A stretch of 64,000 nucleotides of DNA from an uncultured Acetobacteraceae bacterium (lineage in GTDB: Bacteria > Pseudomonadota > Alphaproteobacteria > Acetobacterales > Acetobacteraceae). The notes under the pieces were generated by a model. It worked only from the letters and a program-made list of their open reading frames with translations, did not search any database and was not told the origin of the DNA. A program made the position numbers and the translations under genes. Positions 29,150 to 56,603 of the stretch are shown here, piece by piece. Location: positions 6,659 to 70,658 of the forward strand of contig CAXUEL010000001.1 of NCBI GenBank assembly GCA_964249915.1, in the 5' to 3' direction. The first letter of the stretch is position 1. Each line of letters begins with the position of its first letter.

Positions 29150-29270
29150 AGTGGCTCAAGTGGGTTAAGTGGGTTACTTCGGCACTGCTTCGTAAAAGAT
29201 GCAGGGCTTCTGTCTCTGACACTTTTCACACGGAGTAAGAAACAAACCCACTTAACCCACTTGAGCCACT
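29150..29270. repeat. 121-bp element with 27-bp terminal inverted repeats (3 x 9-mer), copy 1
   Basis: AGTGGCTCA AGTGGGTTA AGTGGGTTA ... AAACCCACT TAACCCACT TGAGCCACT (26/27 complementary). Confidence 0.9.
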
Positions 29271-29385
29271 TGGAGAGGCCGATATGGCGCCGGACCACAT
29301 CTCCAGTTAAGAATGAGACTCAACTGGCCGAAGTCGTGTCCGCATACCAGGGTATGTGTAGTGTTGTGTGGGTGTGGTCAGACGC

Positions 29386-30519
29386 TCAGCTCACCGACAC
29401 CGACCGCGCTTTGACGACCACGCCTGCCCCGGCCTGCACGTCGGCAGCGCGGCCGTTCAGGGTCACCCCGGTCACGTTCGAAATCGTCGCCGAGGCCGCA
29501 TAAGCGAGCGCAGACACCCTTGTCAGCGACAGGGTTCCACCCACGGACAGCGTGTCGACATAGGCCGCGATGGCGGCTTCGATTGGTGCCACCAACCCGG
29601 CCTTCGTCCCGCTGGAGATGACCAGGGTGAGAGCAACGTCGACGTATAGGATGCTAGGCGACTGAACCGAGAACGTCGAACACAGCGGCCTGACGGCATC
29701 GACAGCCGCATACACGGACGCCTTCAGAGCAGCGGATGGCGCTCCGGAGCCGTCGTCCACCACGACCACAAAGTGGCCCGGCCTGCTGGTGCCGTCCTCC
29801 GCCACGTTCTCCTCAATCTGCCAGGTCAACCCCGCCTGCACACCCGCGACAGCAGCGGCAATGGCGAGGCCGGTGGCCTTGTCCAGCGAACCGATATACT
29901 CGACGAACCGGACCTTGACGGCGGCATCCGTCTCGCCCGGCTCGCCACCCTCGGTGGGGGCTCCGTTCGAGACGACATCGATGCCAGCGACGGCGGTTCC
30001 GAAAAGCGAAATGGCGCCTTCAACGACGTTGCCGCCTGCCCCCGCGACGGTCGCGGTAATTGGCACTGTCACCGATGCCACGCCCGATTGCAGCACGTAG
30101 CCGCCTGCGGTCCCAAGGGTCGCCGAGTAGGCGGCGTTCGTCGCGTCGGCGCCGATGGCGTACGTCTCGGAAGCGTCCGCTGTCCGCACGGTGGTGCCGA
30201 CCAGGACCGTCGCAGAGCCGAGCGCGACATATCGGCTCAAGGTCACGGCGCCGGTGGCGTAGGTAGCTGGCAGTCGGGGCGGGCAGCCATAGTCGGCGAT
30301 GAAGCTGTCAACATCGCTACCGGTGCTCGTGCTCAGGCGGCTGGCACTGAGGACGCGGTAGACGTTGGACTGCTGGACGCTCCACTGAGCTGCGGATGCC
30401 TGGAGCAACGCGCGGCCTGGCGAACCCACGGTGAGGTCGAGAAGCACGGTGGCCGCCGACTGTGCCGCCGCGATCATGCCGCCCAGAATCCCCTGCAGCG
30501 TCGGCAACGAGAGCTGCAT
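29386..30519 (-). CDS. Baseplate J-like protein
   Basis: LDLTVGSP.RALL.A, ATG.VTLSRY, GETDAAVK.RF..YI.SL, GHFVVVVDDGSG. Confidence 0.88.
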   Translation of the reverse strand: MQLSLPTLQGILGGMIAAAQSAATVLLDLTVGSPGRALLQASAAQWSVQQSNVYRVLSASRLSTSTGSDVDSFIADYGCPPRLPATYATGAVTLSRYVALGSATVLVGTTVRTADASETYAIGADATNAAYSATLGTAGGYVLQSGVASVTVPITATVAGAGGNVVEGAISLFGTAVAGIDVVSNGAPTEGGEPGETDAAVKVRFVEYIGSLDKATGLAIAAAVAGVQAGLTWQIEENVAEDGTSRPGHFVVVVDDGSGAPSAALKASVYAAVDAVRPLCSTFSVQSPSILYVDVALTLVISSGTKAGLVAPIEAAIAAYVDTLSVGGTLSLTRVSALAYAASATISNVTGVTLNGRAADVQAGAGVVVKARSVSVS

Positions 30520-30531
30520 GGGGATGCATCC

Positions 30532-30885
30532 TTATGTGCTGACGAGGACCTTCTGGCTCGCGCCCGTTTGGTCGACGTAAACGATTGTCGCGGACACCGT
30601 GCCCAGGCCGTCCTGCGCGACGGTTACCGACGTGACGGAGGCGATCGTGGATTCGAGGAGCGCCTGCTCGCTGATGAGCGCCGAGAGGGCGGCCGTGTTG
30701 ACTGGTGAACCGACAAATCGGCCGAGGCCCGCCCCGTATCCGGGGTTCCAGGGGTCGTCGCCGGGGTTCGTAAGCAACCGTCGGATAAGCCGCTGTTCAG
30801 TGAGGGCCGCACCGCTGACGAGCGCCAGCCCGGCAGTGCTCGACAGCGCCAGGTCACCGCCCCAGGGGAGCGAAAAGTCGGCCAT
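30532..30885 (-). CDS. Baseplate wedge subunit (gp25/gpW-like)
   Basis: QRLIRRLLTNPGD..W.PGYGAGLGRFVG; position. Confidence 0.8.
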   Translation of the reverse strand: MADFSLPWGGDLALSSTAGLALVSGAALTEQRLIRRLLTNPGDDPWNPGYGAGLGRFVGSPVNTAALSALISEQALLESTIASVTSVTVAQDGLGTVSATIVYVDQTGASQKVLVST

Positions 30886-30899
30886 TGGTGGGCCTCCGG

Positions 30900-31454
30900 C
30901 TATTCGGCGTCCGGCTTCGTGGTCGGCCCGACGCTCTGCTGGTGGTCGTGGCTGTTGTAGTTCCCGCGCAGGCGGTCCAGCGACCCGTGCTGGTCCGAGA
31001 CATCCATCGTAGATGTGATGTTGCCGTCAACGAGAAGGTCGCCTTTGATATGCCAGGCGCCTCCGACACCATGGAGGAAAGCTCCTCCAGGCAGGAACAC
31101 GCCGAACTCGCCAGGCTGCACCGCTTTGCCGGTCACCGCGCTAGTGGGAGGCACGTCCACCGAGCTGAAAACGCGACCGACAACCACCGGATGGTCCGCG
31201 TCCCCGTGCGCGTGAACCACCAGCACCTGGTCGCCGACGGATGGCGGCGACACGATGCCGAAGCCACCGCCCGCGGACACCGCCGACGCATCGGGGATCC
31301 ATCCGGACAGGACGCCCTCGGGCTGGATGGTCACCCGGATTGAGTGGGCGGCCGGGTCTACGCTGGCGACCGTGGCGTAGCGCGGCTGAGCGATGCTCGC
31401 GACGACGGCCTCGGTGTCGCGCCGCAGCGCGTTTCGGAGATGTTCGAACGACAT
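30900..31454 (-). CDS. Baseplate spike (gpV/gp45-like)
   Basis: OB-fold region PPSVGDQVLV; C-terminal HxH metal motif YNSHDH. Confidence 0.85.
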   Translation of the reverse strand: MSFEHLRNALRRDTEAVVASIAQPRYATVASVDPAAHSIRVTIQPEGVLSGWIPDASAVSAGGGFGIVSPPSVGDQVLVVHAHGDADHPVVVGRVFSSVDVPPTSAVTGKAVQPGEFGVFLPGGAFLHGVGGAWHIKGDLLVDGNITSTMDVSDQHGSLDRLRGNYNSHDHQQSVGPTTKPDAE

Positions 31455-31513
31455 TTCGGAGGATACCCAAATCTAGCAGCAAGCGATCCAGATCGGAAGC
31501 AAGCCGTGACGCG

Positions 31514-32632
31514 TCAGCCGACCTCGGCGTCGCTTTCCGTGCGATGGTTCTTGAGCTTAAGCGTCTGCCGGAAGCCCGCGTCCATCGACCATTCGCGGTC
31601 AATCTCGTCCACATAATAAGGAAGGTCGAACGACGTCCCCGTGCCTGACAAGGCAACCACGGTGCGTGCGTCCATAGTCATCTCGCCAGGCATCGTCACC
31701 GTGCAGAGCCGCTCGTGCTTCACGAGGTCCGCATACTGCGCCTGCACGTAGGCCAGCGCGGCCGCCGGGCTCATGCCAGGTCGCGGCGGCAAGACGTATT
31801 CCTGCGCGTCGGCAGCCTTCGTCGTCGGGTAGGCGATTTCCTGCGCGGTCTTCCCCTTGCTGCTCCAAATCCGCATCACGACGCGGATGTCTTTGGCGAG
31901 CGTCAAGTTGCGCTCGAGCTGGATGTCGAGGACCGGGCTGCTCGGATACGCGACGCCGCTGGTAGCGGGCGTCCACGCCAGCGGAACCGGCGTGGCGGTG
32001 GCTGCGTCGACGGCGATCTTGAAATGAAGGGTCTGTCCGGACAAGTAGCAGTCGGCGCCGACATGGCGGGCTAGATATACCAGGAGGTCCCATTCCGTCG
32101 TCGTCTTGCTGAAGCTGTCGGCAGTGAGTTTGTCGTGCTCCAACTGGTAGAAGGCGCCTGCCAGGGTTCCGAAGTCGTCCACATCGACGGTCAGGCTGCG
32201 TCGGGCGGCGAGCGTCTGGACGATTTCGCTCACCGTCTGGTTGGCGAACGTTTCCTTCGTTTTCGCATCAATCAGGCGGCTGCTGAGGTCCCTGCCCTCG
32301 ACCTCGACGGTGCCGCCCACGAGGTCGATGTGGACCTTGTCGACCTGGCCGACGAAGGCGGACTGCCAGGACGCACTGCTCTCTGCGGCGCCGTCGGCGA
32401 GCAGGGCAGCCTGGATTTCGAGGAGCACCGGGGGGTCGGCGTCTGCCCATGTCGAGAGCACGCTGGGGTCGGCGGACGACGAGAAGCGGGCGTAGACGGT
32501 GTTTGCGCGGTAGCTGTTCGTCTCGTGGACGTCGACGCTCTCGCATCCGGTCAAAGGGGTGCCGTTGAGGAGGGCGCGCCAGCGGGGGTGCCGTACGATG
32601 CCGGGGGTGACGGGCCAAGAGGAGGCGTCCAT
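31514..32632 (-). CDS. Baseplate hub / late control D-like protein
   Basis: FVGQVDKV...VEVEGRDLSSRLID.K; TEWDLL..LA; position. Confidence 0.8.
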   Translation of the reverse strand: MDASSWPVTPGIVRHPRWRALLNGTPLTGCESVDVHETNSYRANTVYARFSSSADPSVLSTWADADPPVLLEIQAALLADGAAESSASWQSAFVGQVDKVHIDLVGGTVEVEGRDLSSRLIDAKTKETFANQTVSEIVQTLAARRSLTVDVDDFGTLAGAFYQLEHDKLTADSFSKTTTEWDLLVYLARHVGADCYLSGQTLHFKIAVDAATATPVPLAWTPATSGVAYPSSPVLDIQLERNLTLAKDIRVVMRIWSSKGKTAQEIAYPTTKAADAQEYVLPPRPGMSPAAALAYVQAQYADLVKHERLCTVTMPGEMTMDARTVVALSGTGTSFDLPYYVDEIDREWSMDAGFRQTLKLKNHRTESDAEVG

Positions 32633-32661
32633 GATGCACTCCTTTCTGGTAGGAAGTGAGA

Positions 32662-32952
32662 ATGTCCGACCATGACAATTGGGGTGTTATTGGTATCTCG
32701 GCGCATGTGCGGCTTCCGCCAGGCGTTTCGCAGGTGGAAGCATGCCCTGCCATCAACGAGGTTCTAGAAGGCTTAGGCATTAGCGGCGAAGCAGGGCCAT
32801 TGAGAAGCACAGAAGACATCGTAGTTGTTGGGATGCCCGCCCCTGTTGGGGTTTCGGCCCATGAAGAAGCACGCCGCATTCTGAAGCTACCCGAGGTTTT
32901 TCCAGCCATAACGAAGCGCCTACGGGAGCTTCAGAATGCGGTTCAGCCCTAA
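32662..32952 (+). CDS. Moron-like hypothetical protein antisense to the tail operon
   Basis: 96 aa, markedly lower GC3, opposite strand. Confidence 0.55.
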   Translation: MSDHDNWGVIGISAHVRLPPGVSQVEACPAINEVLEGLGISGEAGPLRSTEDIVVVGMPAPVGVSAHEEARRILKLPEVFPAITKRLRELQNAVQP

Positions 32953-33146
32953 CCCGGCACCCCGCCGCTAAAGCTTGCCTCGAAATCCGGCACCGTCAGC
33001 GTGGTCAACCCCGCCGGTAAGTCTGCCGTCAACAGCCCGTTCGCCTGCGCGATCGCCAGCCAGGCGGTGGCGTCCCCGTACTGCACGCTCGCGATCCAGA
33101 ACAGGTCGCCATCCGCACTCGAAACGGTAACCGTCGAAGGCATCAC
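32949..33146 (-). CDS. LysM / tail protein X-like
   Basis: DLFWIAS.QYGDATAWLAIAQANGL...LP.G.T.L.VP. Confidence 0.8.
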   Translation of the reverse strand: MMPSTVTVSSADGDLFWIASVQYGDATAWLAIAQANGLLTADLPAGLTTLTVPDFEASFSGGVPG

Positions 33147-33279
33147 TGACTCCTGTCAAAAATCGGACCGCCGCAAACGCCCCGCAGAGCCCCGAAAACG
33201 TTGTTGGCCTACCTAAATCCTGCCGGACCGCTTCCGCCCGCCACGGAGCCCCACAGACGTTTTCGGCCGCCAAACTCGG

Positions 33280-34074
33280 TCAGGCCGCCATATTCTTGAC
33301 GGCCCGCCCTAGATACGTGGAAGCCTGCGACGCGGCCGCCTGAGCATCAGCAGCGGCCGACGCCAGCGACAGGTTGCCCAGACCGCCGAAGGTCGTCCCG
33401 GCGCTCGCCCCCGCAGCAGCGACCGACGCGAGCTGCGCGTCCGCTGCGGTGGAGGCGGCCGATGCGGCGGAGGATGCCGTCGACACAGCGGACGACAGCG
33501 ACAGGAAAGCAGGCGACCCACCGGTCAGGGCGGCCCCGACCGGTAGAGCGGCCTGAGCGACGGTGGCGGCTGATGCGACGGCCGGGGCGAGCGAGGACAG
33601 GCCCAGGGCGCTGCTGATGTCCGAGGCTACCGACGACAGCAGGGTCGGCTGGCTGGTGCTGGGGCCGACCGTGACCACGACGCAGACGACGCGGTAAGGC
33701 AGTAGCGACCCGGCCGACCCGTACTCGCAGTCAAAGGTCTTGAGGACCACGTTCCGGCGGAAGGCCCCCCACGTCAGGGTGACCTGCTGTCCGGCAATCC
33801 GGATCGCGTCGAGCTGCATCGCTCGCGAGACAGCGGTGCCGCCGGTGAAGTAGCCGCTCCACTCGATATCCCGGTCATCCCTGCCCAGGGCATCCACGAC
33901 CCGACCACCGCCCGGAAGCTTGTGGACTACAAGCTTCTGGTCACCGCCGAACGGCATGCGCGCCGGGACTTCGAGGCCGCTCAGACCGATGCCGCCGAGG
34001 GTGACGGCGGGCCCGTTGAGGAGGCTCTCGACGGTGGATAGAAGACCGAGGCCGGTGGCGATTATGCCGGACAT
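33280..34074 (-). CDS. Tail tube-initiator / gpU-like tail protein
   Basis: GLEVPARMPFGGDQKLVVHKLPGGGRVVDALG.DDRDI.WSG; TGATG-coupled to the tape measure gene. Confidence 0.75.
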   Translation of the reverse strand: MSGIIATGLGLLSTVESLLNGPAVTLGGIGLSGLEVPARMPFGGDQKLVVHKLPGGGRVVDALGRDDRDIEWSGYFTGGTAVSRAMQLDAIRIAGQQVTLTWGAFRRNVVLKTFDCEYGSAGSLLPYRVVCVVVTVGPSTSQPTLLSSVASDISSALGLSSLAPAVASAATVAQAALPVGAALTGGSPAFLSLSSAVSTASSAASAASTAADAQLASVAAAGASAGTTFGGLGNLSLASAAADAQAAASQASTYLGRAVKNMAA

Positions 34075-36041
34075 CAGTTGAGTCCTCCTGCGCCTGGCTG
34101 TAGCGGCGAGGTGCGGCTGTCGAAGCCGGTGGCGCCCGTGCTGGGCCCGGACGCCTGCCTTGCGTTCACCGTGTTGACGGTGCGCGCCAGGACGCGGCCG
34201 TCCACCTGAAGCGTGCTGTTGACCTGAATGGGCTGCGAACTGCCCGGCTGGACGGTGCTGTAAGGCACGCCGCCTTCGCGTTTGATGCCAAGCGCGTCGA
34301 ACAACCCGTCCAGAACGCCCGCTTCCTGCTTGGGCGCCACCCAGTGGCTGGGGTCGGTGGCCGCACGCTGCTGTGCCGGGGTCATCGACCGGTGCGCCGC
34401 AATAACGTCGCTCTCGCCCTTGTTGAGCGGTGTCGACCGCATCACTGCGGCCACAGCGCCCAGAGGACCTGCGACCCTCAGGATCATCGCGAACAGGCCG
34501 CCCAAGGCACCGGTCACGGAGGCAATCTGCGCCACCGGCACGCCGATGACCTTGGACAGCAGGAATCCAAGGGCGCTGCCGAGCCCTCGCATCGCCGCCG
34601 AGGCCGCGCCGCAGCCGCCTAGGACGAACAGGAGCCCTCGGAACACCGTCAGGAACGGCGACAGCGCCACGGTCGCTACCGCCATGGCGCCACCCAGGAC
34701 CATCAGGCCACCGAGCGCGGCGGTGTACTCGAGCATCTGGCGGGCGGCTTCCGGGTGAGCAATCACCGTCTGCGTCATCCAGTGGATGCCGTCGGTCAGG
34801 GAGTGCAGCACACCGATGGCAGCGGGAACGCCCGCGTCGCCCAGGGCTTGCAGGAAGCCCTTCCAGGCTTCCTGCAGCTCTCGGACGTTGGTGTCCAGGT
34901 CCTTGTCGTGGAGCTGCTGCGAGGAGTCGTCTACACCTTCGGCGTGCTGGAAGAGGTCGGCGGTCCGGGCAAACTGGACCCTGTTCTGGAACGCTTCGCC
35001 AACCAGGCGCTGGGTGGTCTGGCGGCCGAGTAGCTCGGTTAGCTTCGTCAGGACGTCGTCCTTGGCGACACCGGCCTTCTCGAGCATCGGAATCAGCGTA
35101 TCGTTGACCCAGGTGAACTCGTTCTTTTTCATGTCCGCGAGGTGCATACGCTCGCGACCGGCCTCCGTGTTGGTGACGTGGCCGCCTTTTTCGACGTTGA
35201 AGTCGCGCCCCTCTTTCATGATGCCGAGCTTCTCGAAAGCTCGCCACACGTGCAGCGGCGCGGTGCCGCCCTGGAACTGCTGGAAGAGCGACCCCATGGC
35301 CGTTCCGGCGCGCGACGCGCCCATCGCGACCATGGCTTCCGTGGCCCACCCGTAGAAGGCGGTCGGGTCCATGGCCTTGCCAGCTAGACCGGACTGCTTG
35401 GCGAAGGCCAGGTAATCCTGAGGCTTCAACATGCCGCCGGACGCCTTAACGCCCCTGGCCATGGCGTCCATTTCGGCGATGAGCTTCTGCGGGTCTACCT
35501 CTTCCTCACCGGATGCCCCACGGCTGAAGATGTTGCCTCTGAGGTCGGCGACCTTTACGGCATCGCGGACGGCGCTCTCGCTGTCCGCGCCCGTGAACTC
35601 TTGCAAGTTCCACGCAAGCTTGGCCGCGAACGGAAGGACGGAGAAAGCCTTGTCGTGGCTGCCGAGCTGTCCCGCCAGCTCGCGCTCCATCTTCACGGCC
35701 ATCGCCGGGTCCAGGGTGCGGACCTGCTCGGCAGCGGCGAACGCCCGCGCCTTCACGACGGCGGGGTCAATCTTGAGCTTGCCGCCGAGCTGCGCGGTGC
35801 GGTCGAGCTCGCGGTTCAGCTCGCGGCTGGCCTCGATTGCATGCGTGACGCCGTGGATCAGGCCCAAGCCAGCCATCGCGGAGACCACGCCACCGACGGC
35901 CAGGGCGACTTTGCCGAAGGACTTCTCAAGCTCCTTGGCGCCGGTGTTGAGATGAGCGAAATGCCGAGCGATTAAGCCGAGCATTTGCGGCGCGTTGCTG
36001 GTCAGCCCGAGGTGGACGCCGACCCTGAATACGTCAATCAC
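34074..36041 (-). CDS. Tape measure protein
   Basis: 655 aa, helical, Ala/Gly-rich, hydrophobic stretch; follows the chaperone. Confidence 0.85.
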   Translation of the reverse strand: MIDVFRVGVHLGLTSNAPQMLGLIARHFAHLNTGAKELEKSFGKVALAVGGVVSAMAGLGLIHGVTHAIEASRELNRELDRTAQLGGKLKIDPAVVKARAFAAAEQVRTLDPAMAVKMERELAGQLGSHDKAFSVLPFAAKLAWNLQEFTGADSESAVRDAVKVADLRGNIFSRGASGEEEVDPQKLIAEMDAMARGVKASGGMLKPQDYLAFAKQSGLAGKAMDPTAFYGWATEAMVAMGASRAGTAMGSLFQQFQGGTAPLHVWRAFEKLGIMKEGRDFNVEKGGHVTNTEAGRERMHLADMKKNEFTWVNDTLIPMLEKAGVAKDDVLTKLTELLGRQTTQRLVGEAFQNRVQFARTADLFQHAEGVDDSSQQLHDKDLDTNVRELQEAWKGFLQALGDAGVPAAIGVLHSLTDGIHWMTQTVIAHPEAARQMLEYTAALGGLMVLGGAMAVATVALSPFLTVFRGLLFVLGGCGAASAAMRGLGSALGFLLSKVIGVPVAQIASVTGALGGLFAMILRVAGPLGAVAAVMRSTPLNKGESDVIAAHRSMTPAQQRAATDPSHWVAPKQEAGVLDGLFDALGIKREGGVPYSTVQPGSSQPIQVNSTLQVDGRVLARTVNTVNARQASGPSTGATGFDSRTSPLQPGAGGLN

Positions 36042-36055
36042 GGGTGGATCCTCCT

Positions 36056-36535
36056 CTACTCGATGGGGATGCGACCCTCGAAGACCTCAGCGCCGACCAG
36101 GGTTGTCACGACCCCCTGCTGGAGGATCCGCGCGACCTGCTCGCCCGTCTGGACGGCGGCACCGCCCAGGAACGACCTCGGCGGAATCTTGTCCGTCCCG
36201 AGTTCCTGATACTCGGCGATCTCCGAGTTTGACCCGATGGCGGCCTCGAAAGGAGCGACCACGTGCTCGATGCTGTCGCGCAGGCCACCGGTCCGGAGCA
36301 GCGGGTCGTCCTCGGGGAAGCCCTGGCGGACGCGGTCGTCGCGGGTGGCGTCGGCCAGGCTGGCCCAGTCGGCAAAGGGCGAGATGCCGGTCTGATAGTG
36401 GCCGATATTGGACTTTGCCTGGTTTTGGACGACGAGCGCCGCCTGCTCCATCGCCTCCTGGTCGCCGTGCTCCAGGCGTTCGTGGACCGCCGCGAGGTGG
36501 AGCACGAACTCGGCGATGCTGAACTCACGCACCAT
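36056..36535 (-). CDS. HK97 gp10-like tail completion protein
   Basis: PLLRTGGLRDSIE, A.YQELGT.KIPPRSFL. Confidence 0.75.
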   Translation of the reverse strand: MVREFSIAEFVLHLAAVHERLEHGDQEAMEQAALVVQNQAKSNIGHYQTGISPFADWASLADATRDDRVRQGFPEDDPLLRTGGLRDSIEHVVAPFEAAIGSNSEIAEYQELGTDKIPPRSFLGGAAVQTGEQVARILQQGVVTTLVGAEVFEGRIPIE

Positions 36536-36715
36536 CGCTCTCCTTGCTGCCCGGCTTCCGCCACTCGCCGGTCCGGTCATCCCAGGAAGAACCCTCGAAC
36601 TCGGAGAACGTGATTGACCACGCGGCCCGCTCGTCGGCATCCATCTCGTCGATTTCAGCCTGCGTCATGCCGTGCTTCCGCAGCCAGGCGATCTCCCGAA
36701 ATACGGGATGCCGAA

Positions 36716-37084
36716 CTAGGAGGCGGATGCGGCCAAAGGGTCGGCGGCGACGGCCTCCGCGGCCTGCGCTTCGATGGCGTCCTGTGCGGCGCGGTATGCC
36801 TTGACCATCGCCATCTGCTGATGGAGCTGCACCACCGCGAGGCCGTCGTCGCCGAGGCGGTCAATCATGGCGTCGATCTGCCTCTCGTTGGTCGGCTTGG
36901 CGCACGGCACGCCGTCGATGGACACCACGGACGCGGCGGCCTGCACGCTCATCACGTACGGCTGGTTCATCGACTGGTCGGGGCCGATAGCGCGTAGCAG
37001 GCGGAGCTGTTCCAGCGCCGACATGTCCTTGACGGTGAGCTTGCGGCCCTTGGCGTCGGCGAGGACCGTGGGTTCCGCGCTCAT
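36716..37084 (-). CDS. Tail assembly chaperone, with -1 frameshift extension to 36525
   Basis: Between tube and TMP region; C CCT TTG slippery heptamer at 36734-36740; open -1 frame of 72 codons. Confidence 0.8.
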   Translation of the reverse strand: MSAEPTVLADAKGRKLTVKDMSALEQLRLLRAIGPDQSMNQPYVMSVQAAASVVSIDGVPCAKPTNERQIDAMIDRLGDDGLAVVQLHQQMAMVKAYRAAQDAIEAQAAEAVAADPLAASAS

Positions 37085-37527: not shown

Positions 37528-37541
37528 GGGCAGACCTCATG

Positions 37542-47417: not shown

Positions 47418-47419
47418 GG

Positions 47420-49217: not shown

Positions 49218-49357
49218 GGGGGTTCTCCCCCGGCTACGGGCGGCGACCTGCGGTGGGGCGCTGGAAATGGTGAAGGCCGCTGCCTGGAGGACAGCGGCCT
49301 TCGCTCAATCAGGTGGCCTGGGTCAGGACCCGGGACGCACGAAGAGAGCATGGGAAC

Positions 49358-49447
49358 AGAATGACGGAAGCGATCCACAGGGTCAAGGATTCCCGCACGG
49401 GAGGCTACGGGAAAGGTGTTGACATCCGATACGGAGAGGAATACAAG
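49358..49447. promoter_or_regulatory. Back-to-back sigma70-like promoters (late operon and + strand ORF)
   Basis: Minus: TTGACC-N17-CATTCT (49386-49358); plus: TTGACA-N17-TACAAG (49419-49447). Confidence 0.45.
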
Positions 49448-49497
49448 GATCACAGTGGGCGACGATCGTCTCGGTCGCAGCGGATCTGGAGGGTCCC

Positions 49498-49881
49498 ATG
49501 AGCATTCACAGCAGCACCTCGGCCGAGAGCATTGCGAGCGGCATGCATTCGGCCATCGGTGGCATCGGTCAGATGGCCGTCGCGGCTTGGATGCTGAGCC
49601 GACAGGACGCTGGTCGCCGCGACGCCGAGCAGGCCGCCGCCGCTCAGGGTGCCAGGTCCTCCGTGCTCCGCTCGACGGTGCACGGCCTCCGCGAACAGCT
49701 CGCCGACGAGCGCGCGGCCCACCGCGAGGAGGTCCTCGACTTGCGCGCCGACGCTACATTCTTCCGCAGCGAGAACGCCAAGCTGGCGGCGCGTGTGGCC
49801 GAGCTCGAGGCCGCCGTGATCCAGCTCGACGGCCAGCGCCGCGTCCTGGCCGCCGCCCTCACCGAGGCGCGCGCTGCGTAA
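49498..49881 (+). CDS. Coiled-coil hypothetical protein (127 aa)
   Basis: GGAGG RBS; heptad repeats. Confidence 0.7.
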   Translation: MSIHSSTSAESIASGMHSAIGGIGQMAVAAWMLSRQDAGRRDAEQAAAAQGARSSVLRSTVHGLREQLADERAAHREEVLDLRADATFFRSENAKLAARVAELEAAVIQLDGQRRVLAAALTEARAA

Positions 49882-49902
49882 CATCCGCCGTCCAGAATCA
49901 AG

Positions 49903-49937
49903 AAGGGCCGCTGGATCAACTCCGGCGGCCCTTTTCG
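49903..49937. terminator. Bidirectional terminator
   Basis: AAGGGCCGCTGGA/TCCGGCGGCCCTT stem, T-rich tail. Confidence 0.7.
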
Positions 49938-49949
49938 TTTCGCGTCACC

Positions 49950-50696
49950 TTATGCGCGAAGGGTCTGCATAATCTCGTCTACGTCCTGCGTCGGCTCCGG
50001 CTGCTGTCCGCGCATCGCCGCCCGCGCCGCCGACCGGACCTCTGCACGCCGGGCAGCGACCTGCTCGGCGCTGACGACCTCAGCCCCAGCGCTGGCTTCC
50101 TTGAGTTGCTTCGGTGACCTCACCCCCTCCGGCGGCCGCCCTTTCAGGACTCCGCGGAGCCCCATCACGCTCGCTGCCGCGATGGTGCCGCACTCGTCCT
50201 TGTCGAGCGTCATCAGATAGTCGCGCACGCCCTCGGGCAGCCGACCGAGGGCGACGTCGTCGATCCGCTCGCCGCGTGCCCGGGCGGCGGACACACTCCG
50301 GACGGCGGCGACGAGCTCCCGCGCCTCGGACTGCCTGTCCGCTGCGGCCTGGCGGACTTCCTCCTGCTGGGCAGCTTCGCGTTGGGCGGCGGCTTCCTCG
50401 GCGGCGGCGGACTGCGCGGTCGGCTGCGGGCCGCGCTTGCCCAGGACCATGCCTGCAACCCGGAATGGCAGTTTTACGATGTCCGAAACCGCACCGATCG
50501 CCAGCTTGCTCGTCGCGCCGAGCAGGTCCACGGCAAGCCTCGGCGTAGCTGCGGCCACATCCACGACGCGTTCGAATACCTGCTCGGTGACCTGAACGGC
50601 CTTGCCGCCGACGAATTTCGTGACTGTCACGAAACGCCCTACCAGACGCCCCAACGCGGCCAATGCGGCCCGAACGGCTTCTGCAATCGTGTTCAT
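49950..50696 (-). CDS. Hypothetical helical protein (248 aa)
   Basis: GGAGG RBS; amphipathic N-terminal helices. Confidence 0.65.
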   Translation of the reverse strand: MNTIAEAVRAALAALGRLVGRFVTVTKFVGGKAVQVTEQVFERVVDVAAATPRLAVDLLGATSKLAIGAVSDIVKLPFRVAGMVLGKRGPQPTAQSAAAEEAAAQREAAQQEEVRQAAADRQSEARELVAAVRSVSAARARGERIDDVALGRLPEGVRDYLMTLDKDECGTIAAASVMGLRGVLKGRPPEGVRSPKQLKEASAGAEVVSAEQVAARRAEVRSAARAAMRGQQPEPTQDVDEIMQTLRA

Positions 50697-50978
50697 GATG
50701 TGCCTCCAGCACTCCGAAGGCCCCGCTGGCCTCCGCTGGAACCAGCATCCCTGGCGCACATGCAAGCCACGCCGATTGCGCGACTTTCCCCGGCCGCCCT
50801 CATTCTGGAAGGTCGCCCGTATCCATCGGTCTACAATTTCATCGACCGCCGCCAGAAGGCGAACGCCAGGAAGGCCCGCTACAGCCGCTTGAGCGCGATT
50901 TCCGATGCTGAACCCGTAGAACCGGCTTTCGCCCGCCACGGAGCCTACTAGACGATTTTCTGCCTCAAAAAGCCGGAA

Positions 50979-51557
50979 TCAGCCCGCGATGGCCTCCGAG
51001 ACCCTCCGCCGGACGCTCGCCCACGTGCGCTGCAGAGCCTGGGCATCGGCAAGCGCGCGATGGCGGCGGGGGCCTCGGGCATCCTCCTCGGCGGTGGCTT
51101 CCGCGACGAGCAGAGCGGCCCGCCGTCCGCAAATGGACCGCTCGCGCTCGTAGTCAGCGTGGTCCGTCGGCGGCATCCCGCCAAAGAGCGGTCGGCAGGC
51201 GGCGGCGTAGGCGGTCGTGACGTCGGTCAAGCGGACCGCGTCGGATGGGAAATCTCCGGCTGACAACAGGACGTCGAGCCACCCGCCATCGAAACCTGGC
51301 GCGTCGCTGAAGACAGTCTGACCGCCCAGGACCTCTACGACCCGACGGGCGACCTCCGCAGCCGGGTGACCTTTAATTGCAAGGTCACCCTGGCTGATGC
51401 CGTGCACAGCTTCCGCGTTATAGTCCCAATCCGTCCAGCCGTCCTCGGGCCTGATTAGATACTCCTCGCCCATACCGGACTCGTCACACCAGCCGACCTG
51501 GATCGGCACGGAGTCCGGACCAAGGCCGGACGCCTCGAAGTCCAGAAACCAGATCAC
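50979..51557 (-). CDS. DEDD-family 3'-5' exonuclease
   Basis: FLDFEASG (ExoI), SDAPGFD (ExoII), HRALADA (ExoIII). Confidence 0.8.
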   Translation of the reverse strand: MIWFLDFEASGLGPDSVPIQVGWCDESGMGEEYLIRPEDGWTDWDYNAEAVHGISQGDLAIKGHPAAEVARRVVEVLGGQTVFSDAPGFDGGWLDVLLSAGDFPSDAVRLTDVTTAYAAACRPLFGGMPPTDHADYERERSICGRRAALLVAEATAEEDARGPRRHRALADAQALQRTWASVRRRVSEAIAG

Positions 51558-51856
51558 CGCCGCCCCCTGCTGAGCTCGACCATCCGCACTTCGGCGGCGG
51601 CGACCCTTACGAGCCGGACGACCTCCGCCCACGGGATTCCTGTATCTCTGGCCAGCAAAATCGCTCCGATGACCTCCGCCCGAACCTGCTCCCGGCGCCA
51701 CGCAGAGTCCTCGCGGTCCAGGAGGCCGAGGTCGATGGCGGCTTGCTCGATGCGTGCCCGATGGACGGGCACGACGGCCTCGCCGATCAGGAACGCGTCG
51801 CTGACGCGGCGGACCTCGGCGATGCGCGGGAGCACGGTGTCGCGGGCGGGCTTCAT
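51554..51856 (-). CDS. Hypothetical protein (100 aa)
   Basis: Coupled to both neighbours by 4-nt overlaps. Confidence 0.6.
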   Translation of the reverse strand: MKPARDTVLPRIAEVRRVSDAFLIGEAVVPVHRARIEQAAIDLGLLDREDSAWRREQVRAEVIGAILLARDTGIPWAEVVRLVRVAAAEVRMVELSRGRR

Positions 51857-52389
51857 GCTGCGGACTCCCTGGGTGTTCCTCGCTTCGGCAGGGTCGCCAG
51901 CTTCCACCGAATCTCGGAGAGCTGCACGGGGCGGTAGTCCCAGGCGTCGACGCCCACATCGCACGACTGCCGGTCGCCGGGGAGCTGTCCGTGTGAGTGG
52001 CCGTAAAGGTGCAGCGACCCGTGGTGGCTCCGTGGCCATACGCGCATCGAGTAGTGCAGGAGCACGATACGCATGCCATCCACCGTCAGCTCGGCCATCG
52101 CCTGCGATGACGTCCACGCCGGATGCTCGCGGCATTCCTGCGAGTCGTGGTTGCCGTGAATCAGGTGCTTCCTGCCCGTCAGTCGCGCGAGGTAGCTGCC
52201 GGGGGATTTCGTTCCTCGGAATGCAAAGTCCCCGACCACCCACACATCGTCATCTGCCTGCACGACGGCATTCCAATTTGCGATGAGCGCGCCGTCCATC
52301 TCTCGGCTGTCCGCGAAAGGTCGGGAGCAATGCTTGATGATTTGCGAGTGACCGAGATGTAGGTCGGATGTAAACCAGGTCCTGCTCAT
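51853..52389 (-). CDS. Calcineurin-like metallophosphoesterase
   Basis: FTSDLHLGH, VVGDF, IHGNHD, LLHY, LYGHSH, DVGVD. Confidence 0.9.
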   Translation of the reverse strand: MSRTWFTSDLHLGHSQIIKHCSRPFADSREMDGALIANWNAVVQADDDVWVVGDFAFRGTKSPGSYLARLTGRKHLIHGNHDSQECREHPAWTSSQAMAELTVDGMRIVLLHYSMRVWPRSHHGSLHLYGHSHGQLPGDRQSCDVGVDAWDYRPVQLSEIRWKLATLPKRGTPRESAA

Positions 52390-52650
52390 CGTACTCCTCC
52401 CTGGTCCAGGGCACAGAATACCACGGCTGACGGCAGCTCGGGCGGACCGGGATGCATGAAGAACATGGGGAACCTCAACACGGCGGACGGGATAAACGGA
52501 CGGCTCTTCAGCGAGCCGTCGATATCCCCGCCGTGTGCGTGTTCCTGGTCATGCGAACCGATCTAAACCGGAGGCCGTCACGGCGCAAGCGGTATCCTTG
52601 TCAACACACTGATTCGGATCGCTTTTTTGTTCGGAAACCTTGTGGCAAGA

Positions 52651-52675
52651 GGTTGTCCATGGTATCTATGGACAT
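52651..52675. promoter_or_regulatory. 25-bp operator-like repeat, copy 1
   Basis: GGTTGTCCATGGTATCTATGGACAT; palindrome TGTCCAT-N7-ATGGACA. Confidence 0.7.
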
Positions 52676-52718
52676 ACGGGAGACGCGATGCAGCGCTTCC
52701 GACCTGGAGGATGCAGCT

Positions 52719-53285
52719 ATGTTCACACCCAAGCCCGGCTACGCAGGCCGAGACCCACGCCTAAGCTGGCTACCTGAATTGTCTGGATGTCACGTATTCA
52801 TGGTGCGTTGCGACACCAGAGAACTCGTTGTCGGACCGGGATGGCACGGCGATGACCAAACAGAATTCCGCGCCGAGCTGGAACGTGCCTATCCGGGCAG
52901 ATACACAGAATGGGAAACCGTCGATGCGGAAGAGGTCGCTCGGCGTCGCGAAGCCGACGCCCGGCGTCGCGAGGCCGACAATCGCCGCTTCAACGACGCA
53001 CTGAACATCCCGGCACCGTGGCACGGCAACACTCGCGTCTCTCTCGGCGGTCTAGGCCGGAACTCCTGTGGCGATGGCACTACATCGGCCAGCGTCGAGC
53101 ACGTCGTACTGGAAGGGGATCTGACGGCAGGACGCTTTCGCAGAAGAAGCGGCGACCTGCTCTGCTCAGCAGCCGTCAGCCACTTTGGCTTGTCCAGCCA
53201 CGGCGAGCGCGAGCGGACGCGCCGGTTCCGAATCACATGCAAGGCGTGCCTCCGGGCCGCTGAGCGGTTCAAGGTGGCGGCGTGA
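52719..53285 (+). CDS. Hypothetical protein with Cys motifs
   Basis: GGAGG RBS; GDLLCS...ITCKACL. Confidence 0.65.
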   Translation: MFTPKPGYAGRDPRLSWLPELSGCHVFMVRCDTRELVVGPGWHGDDQTEFRAELERAYPGRYTEWETVDAEEVARRREADARRREADNRRFNDALNIPAPWHGNTRVSLGGLGRNSCGDGTTSASVEHVVLEGDLTAGRFRRRSGDLLCSAAVSHFGLSSHGERERTRRFRITCKACLRAAERFKVAA

Positions 53286-53542
53286 GCCCCCTTGTCGCCC
53301 TGGAGCGTACCGGGGAAGCGCTCCACGGCCATCGCTGGCGGAGCCCTTTGGCCCGCCAGCTTCACAAGCCCGGCGCCCTTGAGGCAGGCATTGACCTCCG
53401 GCTCCTGCAACGGTGGACGTCCGGTGAGCGGCCACCACCCAACTGGCTACCATCGGCCCTGGTAGCCCTCCTTCGGTCCGAGGGCGCACGCCGAGCCGCC
53501 GACCTTGAGCGTCTCGCCGACCGGATCGAAAATGCCGCCTAG
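53282..53542 (+). CDS. HTH DNA-binding protein
   Basis: GEALHG.RW.SPLARQL...IDLRLLQRW.SGERPPP. Confidence 0.7.
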   Translation: MSPLVALERTGEALHGHRWRSPLARQLHKPGALEAGIDLRLLQRWTSGERPPPNWLPSALVALLRSEGARRAADLERLADRIENAA

Positions 53543-53660
53543 CGATGCAGCCGCCGACCGACTAGAGGGCGCCCCAGCGATGGAGGCGCCCTTCTCATGT
53601 AGAAGCCGTCAACGCATTGATTGTAAACAACTTAGTTGAACGGAAAGCTTCATTTCAGTC

Positions 53661-53685
53661 GGTTGTCCGTGGTATCTATGGACAT
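53661..53685. promoter_or_regulatory. 25-bp operator-like repeat, copy 2
   Basis: GGTTGTCCGTGGTATCTATGGACAT, 24/25 identical to 52651. Confidence 0.7.
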
Positions 53686-53733
53686 GAGGAGGCGGATCTT
53701 CCCGGCCCGCCCACCGGATACGGAGAACTCCCA

Positions 53734-54090
53734 ATGCTGAACGCACACACCACCCCAGTCGCGTACCTCGAGCCCGACTGGAACCTCGTCCGAGACGGCG
53801 TGTCCCCCAGGATCCAGTTCCGCTGCCAGCAAGTGGCCACCGCCCTTCAGGCCCTGCTACCGGACGCCGAAATCGACACTCACCACCGTTTCGGAGGCAT
53901 CTCCAAAGTCTACGCGTCATTCGGCGGCAGGACGGCAGCAATCGAGCTGCAGTCGAGCCGGGGCGACGTCCTATATCGCGCAGTCAATGGCCTGGGCGAA
54001 CATCTCTCCGACTACGAGGACCCGGTGGATCGCATGAGCTTTGGCGGCCCATGCGAAGAGGCCGCCGCCTGGCTGCGGCGCGCTTCGTAA
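53734..54090 (+). CDS. Hypothetical protein (118 aa)
   Basis: GGAG RBS; downstream of operator copy 2. Confidence 0.6.
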   Translation: MLNAHTTPVAYLEPDWNLVRDGVSPRIQFRCQQVATALQALLPDAEIDTHHRFGGISKVYASFGGRTAAIELQSSRGDVLYRAVNGLGEHLSDYEDPVDRMSFGGPCEEAAAWLRRAS

Positions 54091-54117
54091 CCGGTCACCG
54101 TCGAGAAGGAGCGCGCC

Positions 54118-54426
54118 ATGCCCACGTGGACATCACCTTTCAGCCCGTTCCGACGACCGATCGACGCCGATATCCGCGCTCTGGAGGCTGCCGTCCAGCG
54201 CACGAAGGCATCCATCGCGGAGGGCGGCAAGCGCGGACGGGCGCTCGGTGCGGTGGCGGCGCGCTTCGGCGTGCTCGAGGCGGCCCGACTGCACTGGTCG
54301 GTCGAGGCCAGGTGGCGGGTGGCCGTGGTGCGGGCGGGCGGCGGTCCGGGCGCGGGTCGCTATGTCGATGAGGCGGTCAACAGATTGGTCGAGGAACGCG
54401 GTTTGAAGATGCTCACGGCGGCGTGA
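54118..54426 (+). CDS. Hypothetical protein (102 aa)
   Basis: AAGGAG RBS; helical. Confidence 0.6.
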   Translation: MPTWTSPFSPFRRPIDADIRALEAAVQRTKASIAEGGKRGRALGAVAARFGVLEAARLHWSVEARWRVAVVRAGGGPGAGRYVDEAVNRLVEERGLKMLTAA

Positions 54427-54465
54427 GGCGAGCGTGAAGTCAACATTTCTGAACGGAGGCGCATC

Positions 54466-55392
54466 ATGAGTGAGGTAAGCAATGTCGTAGCGATGCCGGG
54501 GCCGACTGCGGCGGCCCTGCGGATCCAGGAGACCGGTGTTCTGCTAGAGCGCCCGACGTATCAGCGGCCGCCTCATCACGACGTAGTCTATGCGCTGATG
54601 GGCGGCCGTGTCGGCACGGCGCCACTGGCTCGGTATCGTCTGCCGAAGAGCCTGCGAGCGCATACGCTAGTCGTGCCGGACTCTGGCGATGCGGACACGC
54701 AAGCGAGGCTACCGGAACTCGCGGCGCTTGCGGACCGCATCGCGCCGTGGGTCGCGGTGCACCTCGTGCCCCGCATCCTGTCGCGGCGAAACGGCGACGA
54801 CGACTACGGGCGGCATGCTGGTCATTATGACGTCGACAGCGTGCACTACTCCGCCGTCGGCGGACTCGCTTGTTACGATGAGCAGTTGATTCTCTTGAAC
54901 TCGGCCGGACCGACAGCAGTGACGACTACGCTCTGCCACGAGCTGATGCACTTCATGTGGCATCGGTTGTCCGACGCCGCGCAGGCGGTTCTAAAGGAGG
55001 CGGTCGACGACGGCGCGGACTGGCCCGGCAACTACTTCGGCAACACCGAGGAGCGGGTCGCGCGCATGTTCGAGAAGTGGTCGTCTGCTCGGGTCGAGGG
55101 GATGCCGCACCGTGGCGCCGTGATCATGACTCCCGAAGGCATCTTCGAGCACATCTGGTCCGGTGCGCTGGCTGACCACCAAATCCAACTCGGCCTGGTC
55201 CCCAACCACGAAACCCTCCGCATCCGTCGCAGCCTACCGGAGCTACCGCCTCCGGTTCCGGAGGCCATCGAACCCGAGGCATCCCCCAAGCCGCAAGCCC
55301 GCATCGACGACGTTGTGTGCGACTGGATCTGGGATGGCGCCGCCGCCTTGGTACGCCTCGTCGGTCGGGGCATCCGCCTCGCCGTAGCCTGA
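54466..55392 (+). CDS. HEXXH zinc metallopeptidase-like protein (ImmA/IrrE-like)
   Basis: TLCHELMHF ... EERVARMFE. Confidence 0.6.
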   Translation: MSEVSNVVAMPGPTAAALRIQETGVLLERPTYQRPPHHDVVYALMGGRVGTAPLARYRLPKSLRAHTLVVPDSGDADTQARLPELAALADRIAPWVAVHLVPRILSRRNGDDDYGRHAGHYDVDSVHYSAVGGLACYDEQLILLNSAGPTAVTTTLCHELMHFMWHRLSDAAQAVLKEAVDDGADWPGNYFGNTEERVARMFEKWSSARVEGMPHRGAVIMTPEGIFEHIWSGALADHQIQLGLVPNHETLRIRRSLPELPPPVPEAIEPEASPKPQARIDDVVCDWIWDGAAALVRLVGRGIRLAVA

Positions 55393-55403
55393 GGAGGTCG
55401 GAC

Positions 55404-55832
55404 ATGCTCGCCCCGCTGATGTTCGCCGCCCTAGGACCCGCCTACTTCGCGGCGTCGGCGCTCTACGACCGGCTGATGGAAAAGGTCATCCTGGTCATCC
55501 CCAACCCGGTCCGACCGCGACACTACCTGGACGTCATCAGTGAGATGCAGAGATCGGGCAGCCCCACGTTACGCGCGGTCCAGCACGAAGATGGCCGCTG
55601 GATCCTGCTCGAAGGCAGCCACCGAACGACGGCCGCCATCGGGCTCCGCCGCCGAATTGACCTGGTCGCGGTAGACCCCGACGAGGTCGTCGACGTCGAT
55701 TTCTACCGAGATGACGATGCCGGAGTCCGCCACAAGTATCCTCCGGGTCCGGCGCGGGATTTCGCGCTCGGCTGGACACACCCTGTGGAGCACGTCGTCC
55801 CGGCGCACCGGGTCCGGATCCGGAATGCCTAA
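55404..55832 (+). CDS. ParB/Srx-like domain protein
   Basis: WILLEGSHRTTAA resembles ParB DGHHR. Confidence 0.55.
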   Translation: MLAPLMFAALGPAYFAASALYDRLMEKVILVIPNPVRPRHYLDVISEMQRSGSPTLRAVQHEDGRWILLEGSHRTTAAIGLRRRIDLVAVDPDEVVDVDFYRDDDAGVRHKYPPGPARDFALGWTHPVEHVVPAHRVRIRNA

Positions 55833-55895
55833 CCTCCGATGCCTGCAATGATGTAGGGCCGCTTCCGGCGACGGGGCGGCCCTCGTCATTTCGGA

Positions 55896-56384
55896 CTACC
55901 GGGGCATCGAGAGCGAGATCACGGATGCTGACAGCCACAGCGAACCCGCGTGCTCCGTCACCGCCTGCCACGCCGCCTCCCTAGCCTGTCGGGCCCTGTA
56001 GGGCTCCGGGTCCCATGTGCCGACCCGCCGCTGCCGGTCGACCTCCGCACGCAGCATGCTGGCGGCTTCCGGCGACAGCGAGCCGAGGCGGGCTTTGGCC
56101 AGGGCCGCCGCGTATGATTCTTCGACCGTCATGGGCAACGGCTTCGGCTTCCGCCTGCGGGCCGGGCGTGCAGGCGGTGCGGGCGCCGGGGTTGGGACGG
56201 CGTGCCGTTCCTCGAGGAGCTCGGCGAGGCGTAGAAGGGTATCGGATGCCCGTTTGCGCTTGGACTCCAGGTTCCTGAGGCTCGCGGGCTGGACCCGGAG
56301 CTCGGCGGCGGCCCCGGCGACGGACCAGCCGAGGCGGTGGCGCCAGACGCTGAGGTCGGCGCCGGTCGTGAGGGTGATGGACAT
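55896..56384 (-). CDS. XRE-family HTH regulator
   Basis: DLSVWRHRLGWSVAGAAAELRVQPASLRNLES. Confidence 0.7.
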   Translation of the reverse strand: MSITLTTGADLSVWRHRLGWSVAGAAAELRVQPASLRNLESKRKRASDTLLRLAELLEERHAVPTPAPAPPARPARRRKPKPLPMTVEESYAAALAKARLGSLSPEAASMLRAEVDRQRRVGTWDPEPYRARQAREAAWQAVTEHAGSLWLSASVISLSMPR

Positions 56385-56480
56385 GTTGGGCTCCAGTGCC
56401 GGTTCTGAGAAGCGCTTCTCAGAATGCCGCAGGGCGAGGCTTGGCACCCTCTCCGCCCGCTTCGGTGACGCCCGTGCGGG

Positions 56481-56603
56481 TCAGTGGTTCAAGTGGCTCA
56501 AGTGGATTACTTTCTGACTGTTCCCATAAAGATGCACTGTGTCTTTCTGACACTTTTCTCGCGTAGCTGGAAACCAATCCACTTGAACCACTTGAACCAC
56601 TGA
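56481..56603. repeat. 123-bp element with 28-bp terminal inverted repeats (3 x 9-mer), copy 2; putative origin
   Basis: TCAGTGGTTCAAGTGGCTCAAGTGGATT ... AATCCACTTGAACCACTTGAACCACTGA (27/28); ~100 bp downstream of the primase. Confidence 0.9.

Follow-up and report, generated by a model that had tools for sequence, protein, structure and literature searches.

An iteron-built palindrome behind a PrimPol-helicase gene as a candidate replication origin of an Acetobacteraceae prophage, and its second copy in the tail operon

Two iteron palindromes and their genes

A 64-kb stretch of contig CAXUEL010000001.1 from an uncultured Acetobacteraceae bacterium (64,000 nt, hereafter the window, in whose coordinates all positions are given) carries a temperate, myovirus-type prophage that is integrated beside a tRNA-Glu gene. 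Within this prophage lie two palindromic elements of the same build, 27 kb apart. One of them, copy 2 (56481-56603, minus strand), begins 95 nt past the stop codon (56699) of a gene for a fused primase-polymerase (PrimPol) and helicase (56699-59362, minus strand) and is a candidate replication origin. The other, copy 1 (29150-29270, minus strand), occupies the 253-bp gap (29133-29385) between a baseplate J-like gene, gpJ (29386-30519, minus strand; PF04865, E = 7e-25), which lies upstream, and a gpI-like baseplate gene (28404-29132, minus strand; PF27728 family). An intrinsic terminator of the PrimPol-helicase gene, composed of a 12-bp GC-rich stem followed by a T-run, is located between that gene and copy 2 (56643-56673, minus strand), whilst downstream of copy 2 lies a regulator gene of the HTH_31 family (55896-56447, minus strand), whose real start is likely to be the ATG at 56385. 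All genes flanking either copy are on the minus strand and both copies share one orientation, the core of copy 2 reading in the sense of the primase gene.

Both elements are composed of two inverted arms, each of 27 nt, in which three 9-mers of the form AGTGGNTYA follow one another head-to-tail, as can be read directly from the sequence. Every copy therefore holds six iterons of the consensus AGTGGNTNN, together with the same core boxes. In copy 1, the arm at 29150-29176 consists of the iterons AGTGGCTCA, AGTGGGTTA and AGTGGGTTA, and the inverted arm at 29244-29270 pairs with it at 26 of 26 positions. The corresponding arm of copy 2 (56483-56509) reads AGTGGTTCA, AGTGGCTCA and AGTGGATTA, and its three inverted iterons (56575-56601) deviate from perfect pairing by a single C·A mismatch on the plus strand. 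Between the arms lies a conserved core box, GAAAAGTGTCAGA on the minus strand, at 29215-29227 in copy 1 and 56546-56558 in copy 2, for which the consensus in the wider family of elements described below is GAAAACTGTCAGA. It is accompanied by an inverted, degenerate partner box, TGCATCTTT on the minus strand, at 29195-29203 and 56528-56536, where the family consensus is TCTGACAGTTTT.

The pair is confirmed to be real and far beyond chance. The 27-nt arm pattern matches the window four times, once for each of the four arms, with 0.00 matches expected from 100 shuffles, and all ten exact matches to the single 9-mer fall within the two elements (1.4 expected). A covariance model, R1, built from 14 members of the family, recovers exactly two copies in the window, copy 1 at 134 bits and copy 2 at 125 bits (124.8 on the minus strand and 70.2 on the plus strand), the next match scoring 16.6 bits. 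The original prediction had described both elements at these positions, with threefold inverted arms, and had listed the motifs AAAGATGCA and TCTGACACTTTTC, which are the plus-strand readings of the partner and core boxes, and GAAAC as common to both cores in the same orientation; all of this is borne out, as are its placing of copy 2 just 3' of the primase-helicase gene, its figure of 250 bp for the gap around copy 1 and its statement that no target-site duplication is visible at the flanks of either copy. Its description of the cores as AT-richer had to be dropped: GC content is 45-48% over the whole of each element, arms and core alike, and the core is not lower than the arms in either copy. 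Against a window average of 67%, this places the elements in the lowest ~1% of 65-nt windows.

Several familiar classes of site were considered for the elements and rejected. The reverse complement of the iteron, TRANCCACT, matches the DnaA box TTATNCACA at only ~5 of 8 specified positions, and head-to-tail spacing at 9 bp is unlike that of oriC arrays. The spacing is likewise wrong for a CtrA site (TTAA-N7-TTAA) and for the alphaproteobacterial LexA site (GTTC-N7-GTTC). An attP-like site was discarded because the spacer between the boxes varies from ~10 to 70 nt across the family and the integrase gene is distant from both copies, by 18 kb (copy 1) and 45 kb (copy 2).

The mirror symmetry of the arms extends to their substitutions. 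The 26 arm pairs of 14 elements have 94.7% of their cells paired, and in 12 of these pairs both sides are altered; doubly changed cells number 44, compared with 11.1 ± 3.0 after shuffling, and none of 500 shuffles reaches the observed value. With the arms in register, 82% of the variable iteron positions are complementary; shifting one arm by one iteron lowers this to 64%, from which it follows that outer, middle and inner iterons are individually mirrored. This co-variation, which is observed directly, is in keeping with a site for which folding or symmetry is essential, for example a cruciform, a hairpin or the seat of a head-to-head double hexamer. Template-switch correction of quasi-palindromes, or an iteron specificity shared by both arms, could also yield such compensation. 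When folded as RNA, the two hairpins have predicted energies of -64.3 and -64.9 kcal/mol (z-scores of about -8.8 and -8.7), and the 123-nt palindrome of copy 2 folded as DNA reaches -35.8 kcal/mol (z-score -8.35). Both strands fold equally well, either as RNA or as DNA.

The replication gene and its element family

The protein encoded by 56699-59362 is presumed to be the initiator that binds the iterons. Its sole Pfam match is Prim-Pol (PF09250), over residues 52-220, and no Toprim domain was found; the PHROG families for DNA primase and polymerase/primase cover residues 347-878, and a search of NCBIfam with the protein gave no match. A homologue search retrieved 66 relatives of the protein, and a Walker-type GxxGxGKS motif is invariant in the alignment. 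AlphaFold models of the C-terminal 138 and 87 residues (mean predicted local distance difference test scores, pLDDT, of 88.5 and 82.1) predict a domain with a winged-helix-like order of elements, H-β-β-H-H-β-β.

Elements of the same layout follow homologues of this gene across a wide range of divergence. A detector was designed to register TGTCA...TGACA box pairs that stand between inverted arms of 8-9-bp tandem repeats in the 600 nt downstream of the gene, and was applied to 122 loci with PrimPol-helicase homologues of 30-60% identity (tblastn). It is positive at 58 of these loci, most of which encode homologues of 40-53% identity, and at 0 of 2389 control windows taken from the same loci. 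The sub-lineage of the window is not counted by this detector, as its second box is degenerate (TGCATCTTT). The linkage of element and gene throughout the family is thus a direct observation. The shared layout comprises about three tandem repeats of 8-9 bp, ~20 nt, the box GAAAACTGTCAGA, a spacer of variable length (~10 to 70 nt), in many cases rich in CA/TG, the inverted box TCTGACAGTTTT, a further ~20 nt and the inverted repeats. No description of this family-wide architecture, in which conserved boxes and lineage-specific iterons are combined as a palindrome, was found in the literature searched.

When R1 was applied to further loci (designated by L numbers), one match was obtained per primase-homologue locus, 6-150 nt past the end of the primase match, the exception being L121 with two; the loci L110, L115, L116 and L338, which flank gpI homologues, each show a copy 1. 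The order of gene, terminator and element found in the window recurs in L118, L119, L120 and L121, whose primases are 90, 73, 66 and 55% identical to that of the window, and L054, a locus reached by the arm pattern alone, also has its element after a helicase homologue. On the other side of the element, the genes belong to unrelated families in different lineages, the place of the HTH_31 gene being taken by an unrelated gene, so that the element is tied to the primase-helicase gene. The Acidisoma cellulosilytica prophage L121 has two tandem copies of the element (8764-8894 and 8983-9113; 219-bp period, 97% identical), in which the second core box, TCTGACAGTTTTC, is intact.

The iterons themselves differ between lineages, with GGTGGGTTT, GGTTAGGTT, AGGGGGTTT, AGTGGACTT, GAAGGAGAT, AGTGGNTYA and others being found, while the core box is conserved over primase homologues that are only ~40% identical. 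Iteron type clusters with the last ~60 residues of the replication protein, as would be predicted for a domain that reads the iterons. The tblastn matches to the PrimPol-helicase of the window include Bordetella phages, one of which, BPP-1 (L342), provides a whole genome in which the family can be surveyed. It contains one element of the same layout (26606-26711) and none elsewhere in its 42.5 kb. The element, with arms of TTTGCCTCG repeats and the boxes GGAAGTTTCTCAT and ATGAGAAAGTTAC around ACGTGTAC, is flanked by bbp27 and bbp28; the primase gene, bbp29, is about 460 nt away, on the far side of a small opposite-strand open reading frame (ORF) that follows that gene.

The remainder of the prophage is of conventional arrangement. 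The tRNA-Glu(CTC) gene (10469-10544) directly precedes a tyrosine-type integrase gene (10560-11801), which defines the left boundary of the prophage. A repeat of the 3' end of tRNA-Glu that could serve as attR is absent from the 64-kb window, so the right end lies beyond it. The late region, on the minus strand, encodes tail fibre, gpI-like protein, gpJ, gpW, spike, tape measure, sheath, major head protein, portal and large terminase, with copy 1 between gpI and gpJ, and is followed by an early region with copy 2 and the PrimPol-helicase gene. The closest relatives are Acetobacteraceae prophages, in a Lichenicola metagenome-assembled genome and in Acidisoma cellulosilytica; no close sequenced phage was found in GenBank, and a BLASTN search of copy 2 against 50,697 phage records returned no match. 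An exact look-up of the gpI-like protein was also without a match.

Some smaller features adjoin the two elements. Between copy 2 and the start codon of the HTH_31 gene lies a perfect 22-bp palindrome, TTCTGAGAAGCGCTTCTCAGAA (56403-56424), which is kept with one change in L118 (about 8882-8903) and is probably the operator of that regulator. Upstream of copy 1, a CA-rich spacer of 115 nt (CCACACCCACACAACACTACACATACCCTGGTATGCGGACAC...; 29271-29385, minus strand) extends from the gpJ stop codon to the element. It is common to the window, L338 and L115 and absent from L110 and L116; in L338 and L115 it follows an opposite-strand moron cassette, and because it adjoins the start of that cassette in L115 it may be a leftover promoter region. 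On the other side of copy 1, the GGAGG ribosome-binding site of gpI begins after 8 nt, and copy 1 thereby places a 26-bp hairpin in the tail-operon transcript directly ahead of this site. Elsewhere in the window, a DNA methyltransferase gene (13649-14623) and a large helicase gene (17469-19595) lie between the integrase and the tail genes, and this region (13649-19595) may be accessory or defence-type prophage cargo. In the host part, three diverged direct-repeat blocks (3995-6247), 71-74% identical and with a constant 1215-bp offset, indicate an internal duplication of ~1.2 kb within or between large ORFs.

Copy 1 and the reading of the pair

Copy 1 is found at the gpJ/gpI junction of five prophages, those of the window, L338, L115, L110 and L116, in which gpI is at least 77% identical; homologues of the gpI-like protein form a small family. 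The contents of the junction and its neighbourhood vary. In L115, two opposite-strand ORFs (8485-9683) are inserted between gpJ and copy 1; in L339, an opposite-strand HTH_31 gene (707-970) lies between gpJ and gpI; and in L117, an opposite-strand gene for a 207-aa protein (8134-8757) is found between gpW and gpJ. From these varied contents, the junction can be regarded as an insertion hot spot and copy 1 as a lineage-specific acquisition. It carries the degenerate second box of its sub-lineage, and so derives from copy 2 of its own lineage. The copy-1 orthologues of the window, L110 and L115 are 75-82% identical, and L116 is 62-76% identical to them, whilst copy 1 and copy 2 of the same genome share 61-70% identity, which implies that the duplication is old and that the copies are not being homogenised. 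Outside the nearest 10 nt or so on either flank (TCTCATT..TTAG, CCATTCAGTGG), the two copies have weak similarity only; the duplicated unit was accordingly about 135 bp, which gives no indication of the mechanism.

The distribution and conservation of copy 1 are matters of direct observation. Whilst its orthologues as a whole have fallen to 62-82% identity, the core box GAAAAGTGTCAGA is identical in four of five, L115 having GAAAAGTGTCAAA with one substitution; the TGCATCTTT partner is kept in four of five; and the AGTGG cores of the iterons are kept. The second iteron is changed on both arms, reading GTTA/GTTA in the window and CTCA/CTCA in L115. This pattern suggests continued constraint on the very features that define copy 2, and with all motifs kept and arm changes matched, copy 1 is probably a second site for the same replication protein.

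The explanation that best accounts for these data, to which a probability of roughly 0.6 is assigned, is that copy 2 is the prophage replication origin, at which the PrimPol-helicase would assemble, and that copy 1 is a retained paralogue, most likely serving as a second site. For copy 2, the origin reading is well supported by the comparative evidence together with two experimentally studied analogues, the S. aureus pathogenicity islands and plasmid pRN1 considered below. Of the original interpretation, a bipartite origin or a self-propagating cis element, it is thus the origin-type iteron site that survives, for copy 2, on the basis of the 58 of 122 loci and the layouts of these two analogues; self-propagation does not. 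Protein binding, melting, priming and any role of copy 1 are inferred, and the sequence of events proposed is as follows. The C-terminal domain would recognise the six 9-bp iterons (AGTGGNTNN), three per side and facing each other, and this opposed arrangement would lead two helicase rings to load head-to-head around the low-GC centre with its inverted boxes (GAAAAGTGTCAGA and the degenerate partner). The centre would then melt, possibly aided by extrusion of the quasi-palindrome as a hairpin or cruciform, and the PrimPol domain would prime DNA synthesis. Copy 1 would have arisen by copying of copy 2 into the gpJ/gpI junction in the ancestor of the five close prophages, and as a loading or binding site could act as a second origin, as a distal enhancer similar to crr of phage P4, as a site that titrates or handcuffs the initiator, or as a coupler of replication to late expression; it could also be a passenger. 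A bolder version, in which this lineage replicates from two equivalent initiator-loading palindromes 27-33 kb apart, either as two origins or as an origin with a crr-like distal site, is put forward tentatively, as less likely than not. If it were true, binding or firing within the tail operon would couple replication to late expression, through a roadblock or through an opened template between gpJ and gpI.

A number of observations weigh against this explanation. The co-variation of iterons and C-terminal domain is confounded by shared ancestry, and neither C-terminal model has a match of E < 0.1 in a Foldseek search of the Protein Data Bank (PDB), nor did a PDB sequence-profile search with the primase alignment produce any match. 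In the window's own sub-lineage, the second core box is degenerate (TGCATCTTT compared with TGACAGTTT). In the case of pRN1, it proved impossible to demonstrate that the replication protein binds the stem-loop specifically (PMC4234260). With respect to copy 1, gpJ and gpI are 12 nt apart with no element between them in L117 (gpI 55% identical), copy 1 is lacking in L339 (gpI 63%), where the HTH gene fills the gap, and no element lies within 3 kb of the more distant gpI homologues on 80 viral contigs. The single element of BPP-1 and the one element per locus in the flanks of the other homologues (two in tandem in L121) imply that a second site is no general requirement of this replicon type; it is dispensable there, and copy 1 could be a tolerated passenger. 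Finally, the sole public sequencing run with the locus is an air metagenome, at 10% of words.

The last of the points on copy 1 leads to the most serious rival, that only copy 2 functions and that copy 1 is an ectopic passenger in a permissive hot spot, roleless or acting merely as an mRNA hairpin. The restriction of copy 1 to five close relatives, the unrelated insertions that the junction accepts (the opposite-strand genes of L115 and L339) or does without (L117), the economy of BPP-1 and of the other homologue loci, and a left arm reduced to two iterons in L338 can all be cited in its favour. It is nevertheless doubtful, given the retention of boxes and iteron cores amid general divergence and the changes matched on both arms, which suggest constraint, although template-switch correction could mimic the latter. 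A role at the level of RNA, as an RNase III site, an mRNA stabiliser or a nut/put-like antitermination signal in the early and late units, would make sense of the orientation of both copies with their surrounding genes, of the transcription that copy 1 must undergo in the tail operon and of the very stable predicted hairpins. Mismatches in the arms on the sense strand are also G·T in 11 cases and A·C in 5, as RNA pairing would favour, but this asymmetry is not significant and includes duplicated rows. Copy 2, moreover, sits behind an intrinsic terminator; the opposite strand folds equally well; and tandem iterons, strict AGTGG, sequence-conserved boxes and a variable spacer fit DNA recognition better than an RNA fold. 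An Rfam 15 scan of the window found the tRNA as its sole match at the gathering score, and at a permissive threshold gave nothing for copy 1 and only generic long-hairpin matches for copy 2 (for example, 24.6 against 71.4 bits). An RNA function is therefore judged unlikely.

Inverted repeat arrays with a central core are also a feature of operators and of ParR-type centromere/promoter sites, and each copy is directly upstream of a gene (HTH_31 and gpI), such that the elements might be promoter or operator arrays for a phage regulator, for example the HTH protein encoded 3' of copy 2. This is rendered quite improbable by negative scans for sigma-70-like promoters in both element regions, by a downstream gene that varies across the family while the upstream primase-helicase gene is constant, by the 22-bp palindrome at 56403-56424, which is a better candidate operator for the HTH gene, and by L117, where gpI directly follows gpJ without any element. 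Least probable of all is a mobile element of the type of a miniature inverted-repeat transposable element (MITE) or repetitive extragenic palindrome (REP), inserted twice in the prophage, in spite of the terminal inverted repeats, the length of ~120 bp and the presence of two copies, of which copy 1 fills a gap between genes that are nearly adjacent in the relative L117. Apart from the lack of a target-site duplication and the restriction to two copies in the window, synteny speaks against it, the element keeping its place after the primase gene over deep divergence. The arm pattern, searched for in one genome per species from 185,579 species, gave 114 loci; 112 are unrelated tandem 9-mers. 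The only true relatives, L054 and L110, are both located inside phage regions, L110 being the copy-1 orthologue of a related prophage whose own primase-linked copy is L119. The many chromosomal copies unlinked to primase genes that would mark a self-propagating repeat, as raised by the original prediction, did not turn up, each phage having one or two. Exact scans of viral and metagenome collections for the core as it reads in the window's sub-lineage (GAAAAGTGTCAGAN{8,16}TGCATCTTT) yielded no match either, relatives in these collections being reached only via flanking proteins.

The preferred explanation, of an origin at copy 2 and a retained second site at copy 1, is a finding that rests entirely on sequence inference. 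Its interest lies in the fact that temperate-phage origins are mostly unknown outside model systems. The signature of three iterons, a GAAAACTGTCAGA box, a spacer, an inverted box and three inverted iterons, situated directly behind the gene, would predict the origin for a large and mostly uncharacterised family of PrimPol-helicase replicons that includes prophages, short viral contigs and BPP-1. The unusual part is the conserved second copy within a structural operon, which lends itself to a simple genetic test of a second-origin, copy-number or late-gene role. Were copy 1 to prove inert, the pair would still be a clean example of the copying of an origin module within a phage genome.

Comparison with known replication systems

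The closest two-site system is that formed by ori and crr of phage P4, reportedly worked out by Flensburg and Calendar in 1987 and by Ziegelin and colleagues in 1993 and 1995, and covered in part in PMC4234260. In P4, two distant cis sites, 4.5 kb apart and both required, share iterons that are bound by the primase-helicase α via its C-terminal domain. The prophage resembles P4 in having two separate cis sites with shared iterons, and the tandem duplication after the primase gene in L121 recalls the repeated structure of crr. The α protein, however, has a Toprim (DnaG-type) primase in place of the PrimPol domain. Furthermore, ori and crr are structurally unlike each other, whereas the two copies here are near-equivalent palindromes 27-33 kb apart, and the need for both sites that was shown for P4 contrasts with the single site of most relatives of the prophage.

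Iteron plasmids offer a second precedent for a distant copy. In P1 (incA) and F (incC), extra initiator-binding arrays titrate or handcuff the initiator and so control copy number. Copy 1 is similar to these in that it adds initiator-type repeats outside the origin proper. The incA and incC arrays differ in being direct repeats near the rep gene without a melting region, whilst copy 1 is a complete replica of an origin-like palindrome inside a late structural operon. Iteron plasmids in general have been reviewed (PMC4980987).

For copy 2, the most informative parallels are origins that lie directly behind their replication gene. In Staphylococcus aureus pathogenicity islands (SaPIs), the origin consists of 6-12 iterons immediately 3' of the rep ORF, a reading frame that some of these islands have as a pri-rep fusion (PMC9371898). 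These iterons are divided equally between the two sides of an AT-rich centre, with opposite orientations, and the C-terminal winged helix of Rep binds them; this work on SaPIs and other phage-inducible chromosomal islands (PICIs) is that of Ubeda et al. 2007 and 2012, as summarised in PMC9371898. Copy 2 shares the position immediately 3' of the replication gene, a feature that copy 1 fails to show, and both elements share the 3 + 3 opposed iterons and the low GC content, although the centre here is not AT-richer than the arms. The SaPI initiator is a helicase that loads itself and binds DNA through its C-terminal domain, as is proposed for the prophage protein, and iteron specificity varies between elements in both systems. 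Among the differences, the iterons are of 9 bp here and of 5-6 bp in SaPIs; the region between the arms holds two extra inverted boxes that are conserved (GAAAACTGTCAGA); each arm position mirrors its counterpart, which makes the whole element a foldable quasi-palindrome; and the primase domain is a PrimPol. The prophage is also a full, temperate, myovirus-type prophage of an alphaproteobacterium and not a satellite, and it has a second copy 27 kb away.

A second origin in this position is that of the Sulfolobus plasmid pRN1. Its ORF904 encodes a protein with PrimPol, superfamily 3 (SF3) helicase and winged-helix domains, and the gene is followed by a terminator and then by a 100-nt stem-loop that is required for replication (PMC4234260). 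This stem-loop can be moved elsewhere on the plasmid, and mutations in its stem are rescued by compensatory changes (PMC4234260). The order of PrimPol, helicase and small C-terminal domain is the same in the prophage protein, as is the succession of gene, terminator (56643-56673) and 123-nt palindrome, and the stem integrity required in pRN1 parallels the arm compensation described above. Unlike the conserved core boxes and tandem iterons seen here, the pRN1 stem-loop is without iterons and its sequence is not conserved (PMC4234260), and it is present in one copy. The authors of the pRN1 study drew attention to a similar stem-loop 3' of the replication gene of Bordetella phage BIP-1 (PMC4234260), to which the BPP-1 element can be likened by text description only. 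Because the stem of copy 2 is itself built from iterons, this element would unite the two descriptions, and it suggests a connection between the iteron-origin model of the SaPIs and the stem-loop-origin model of pRN1.

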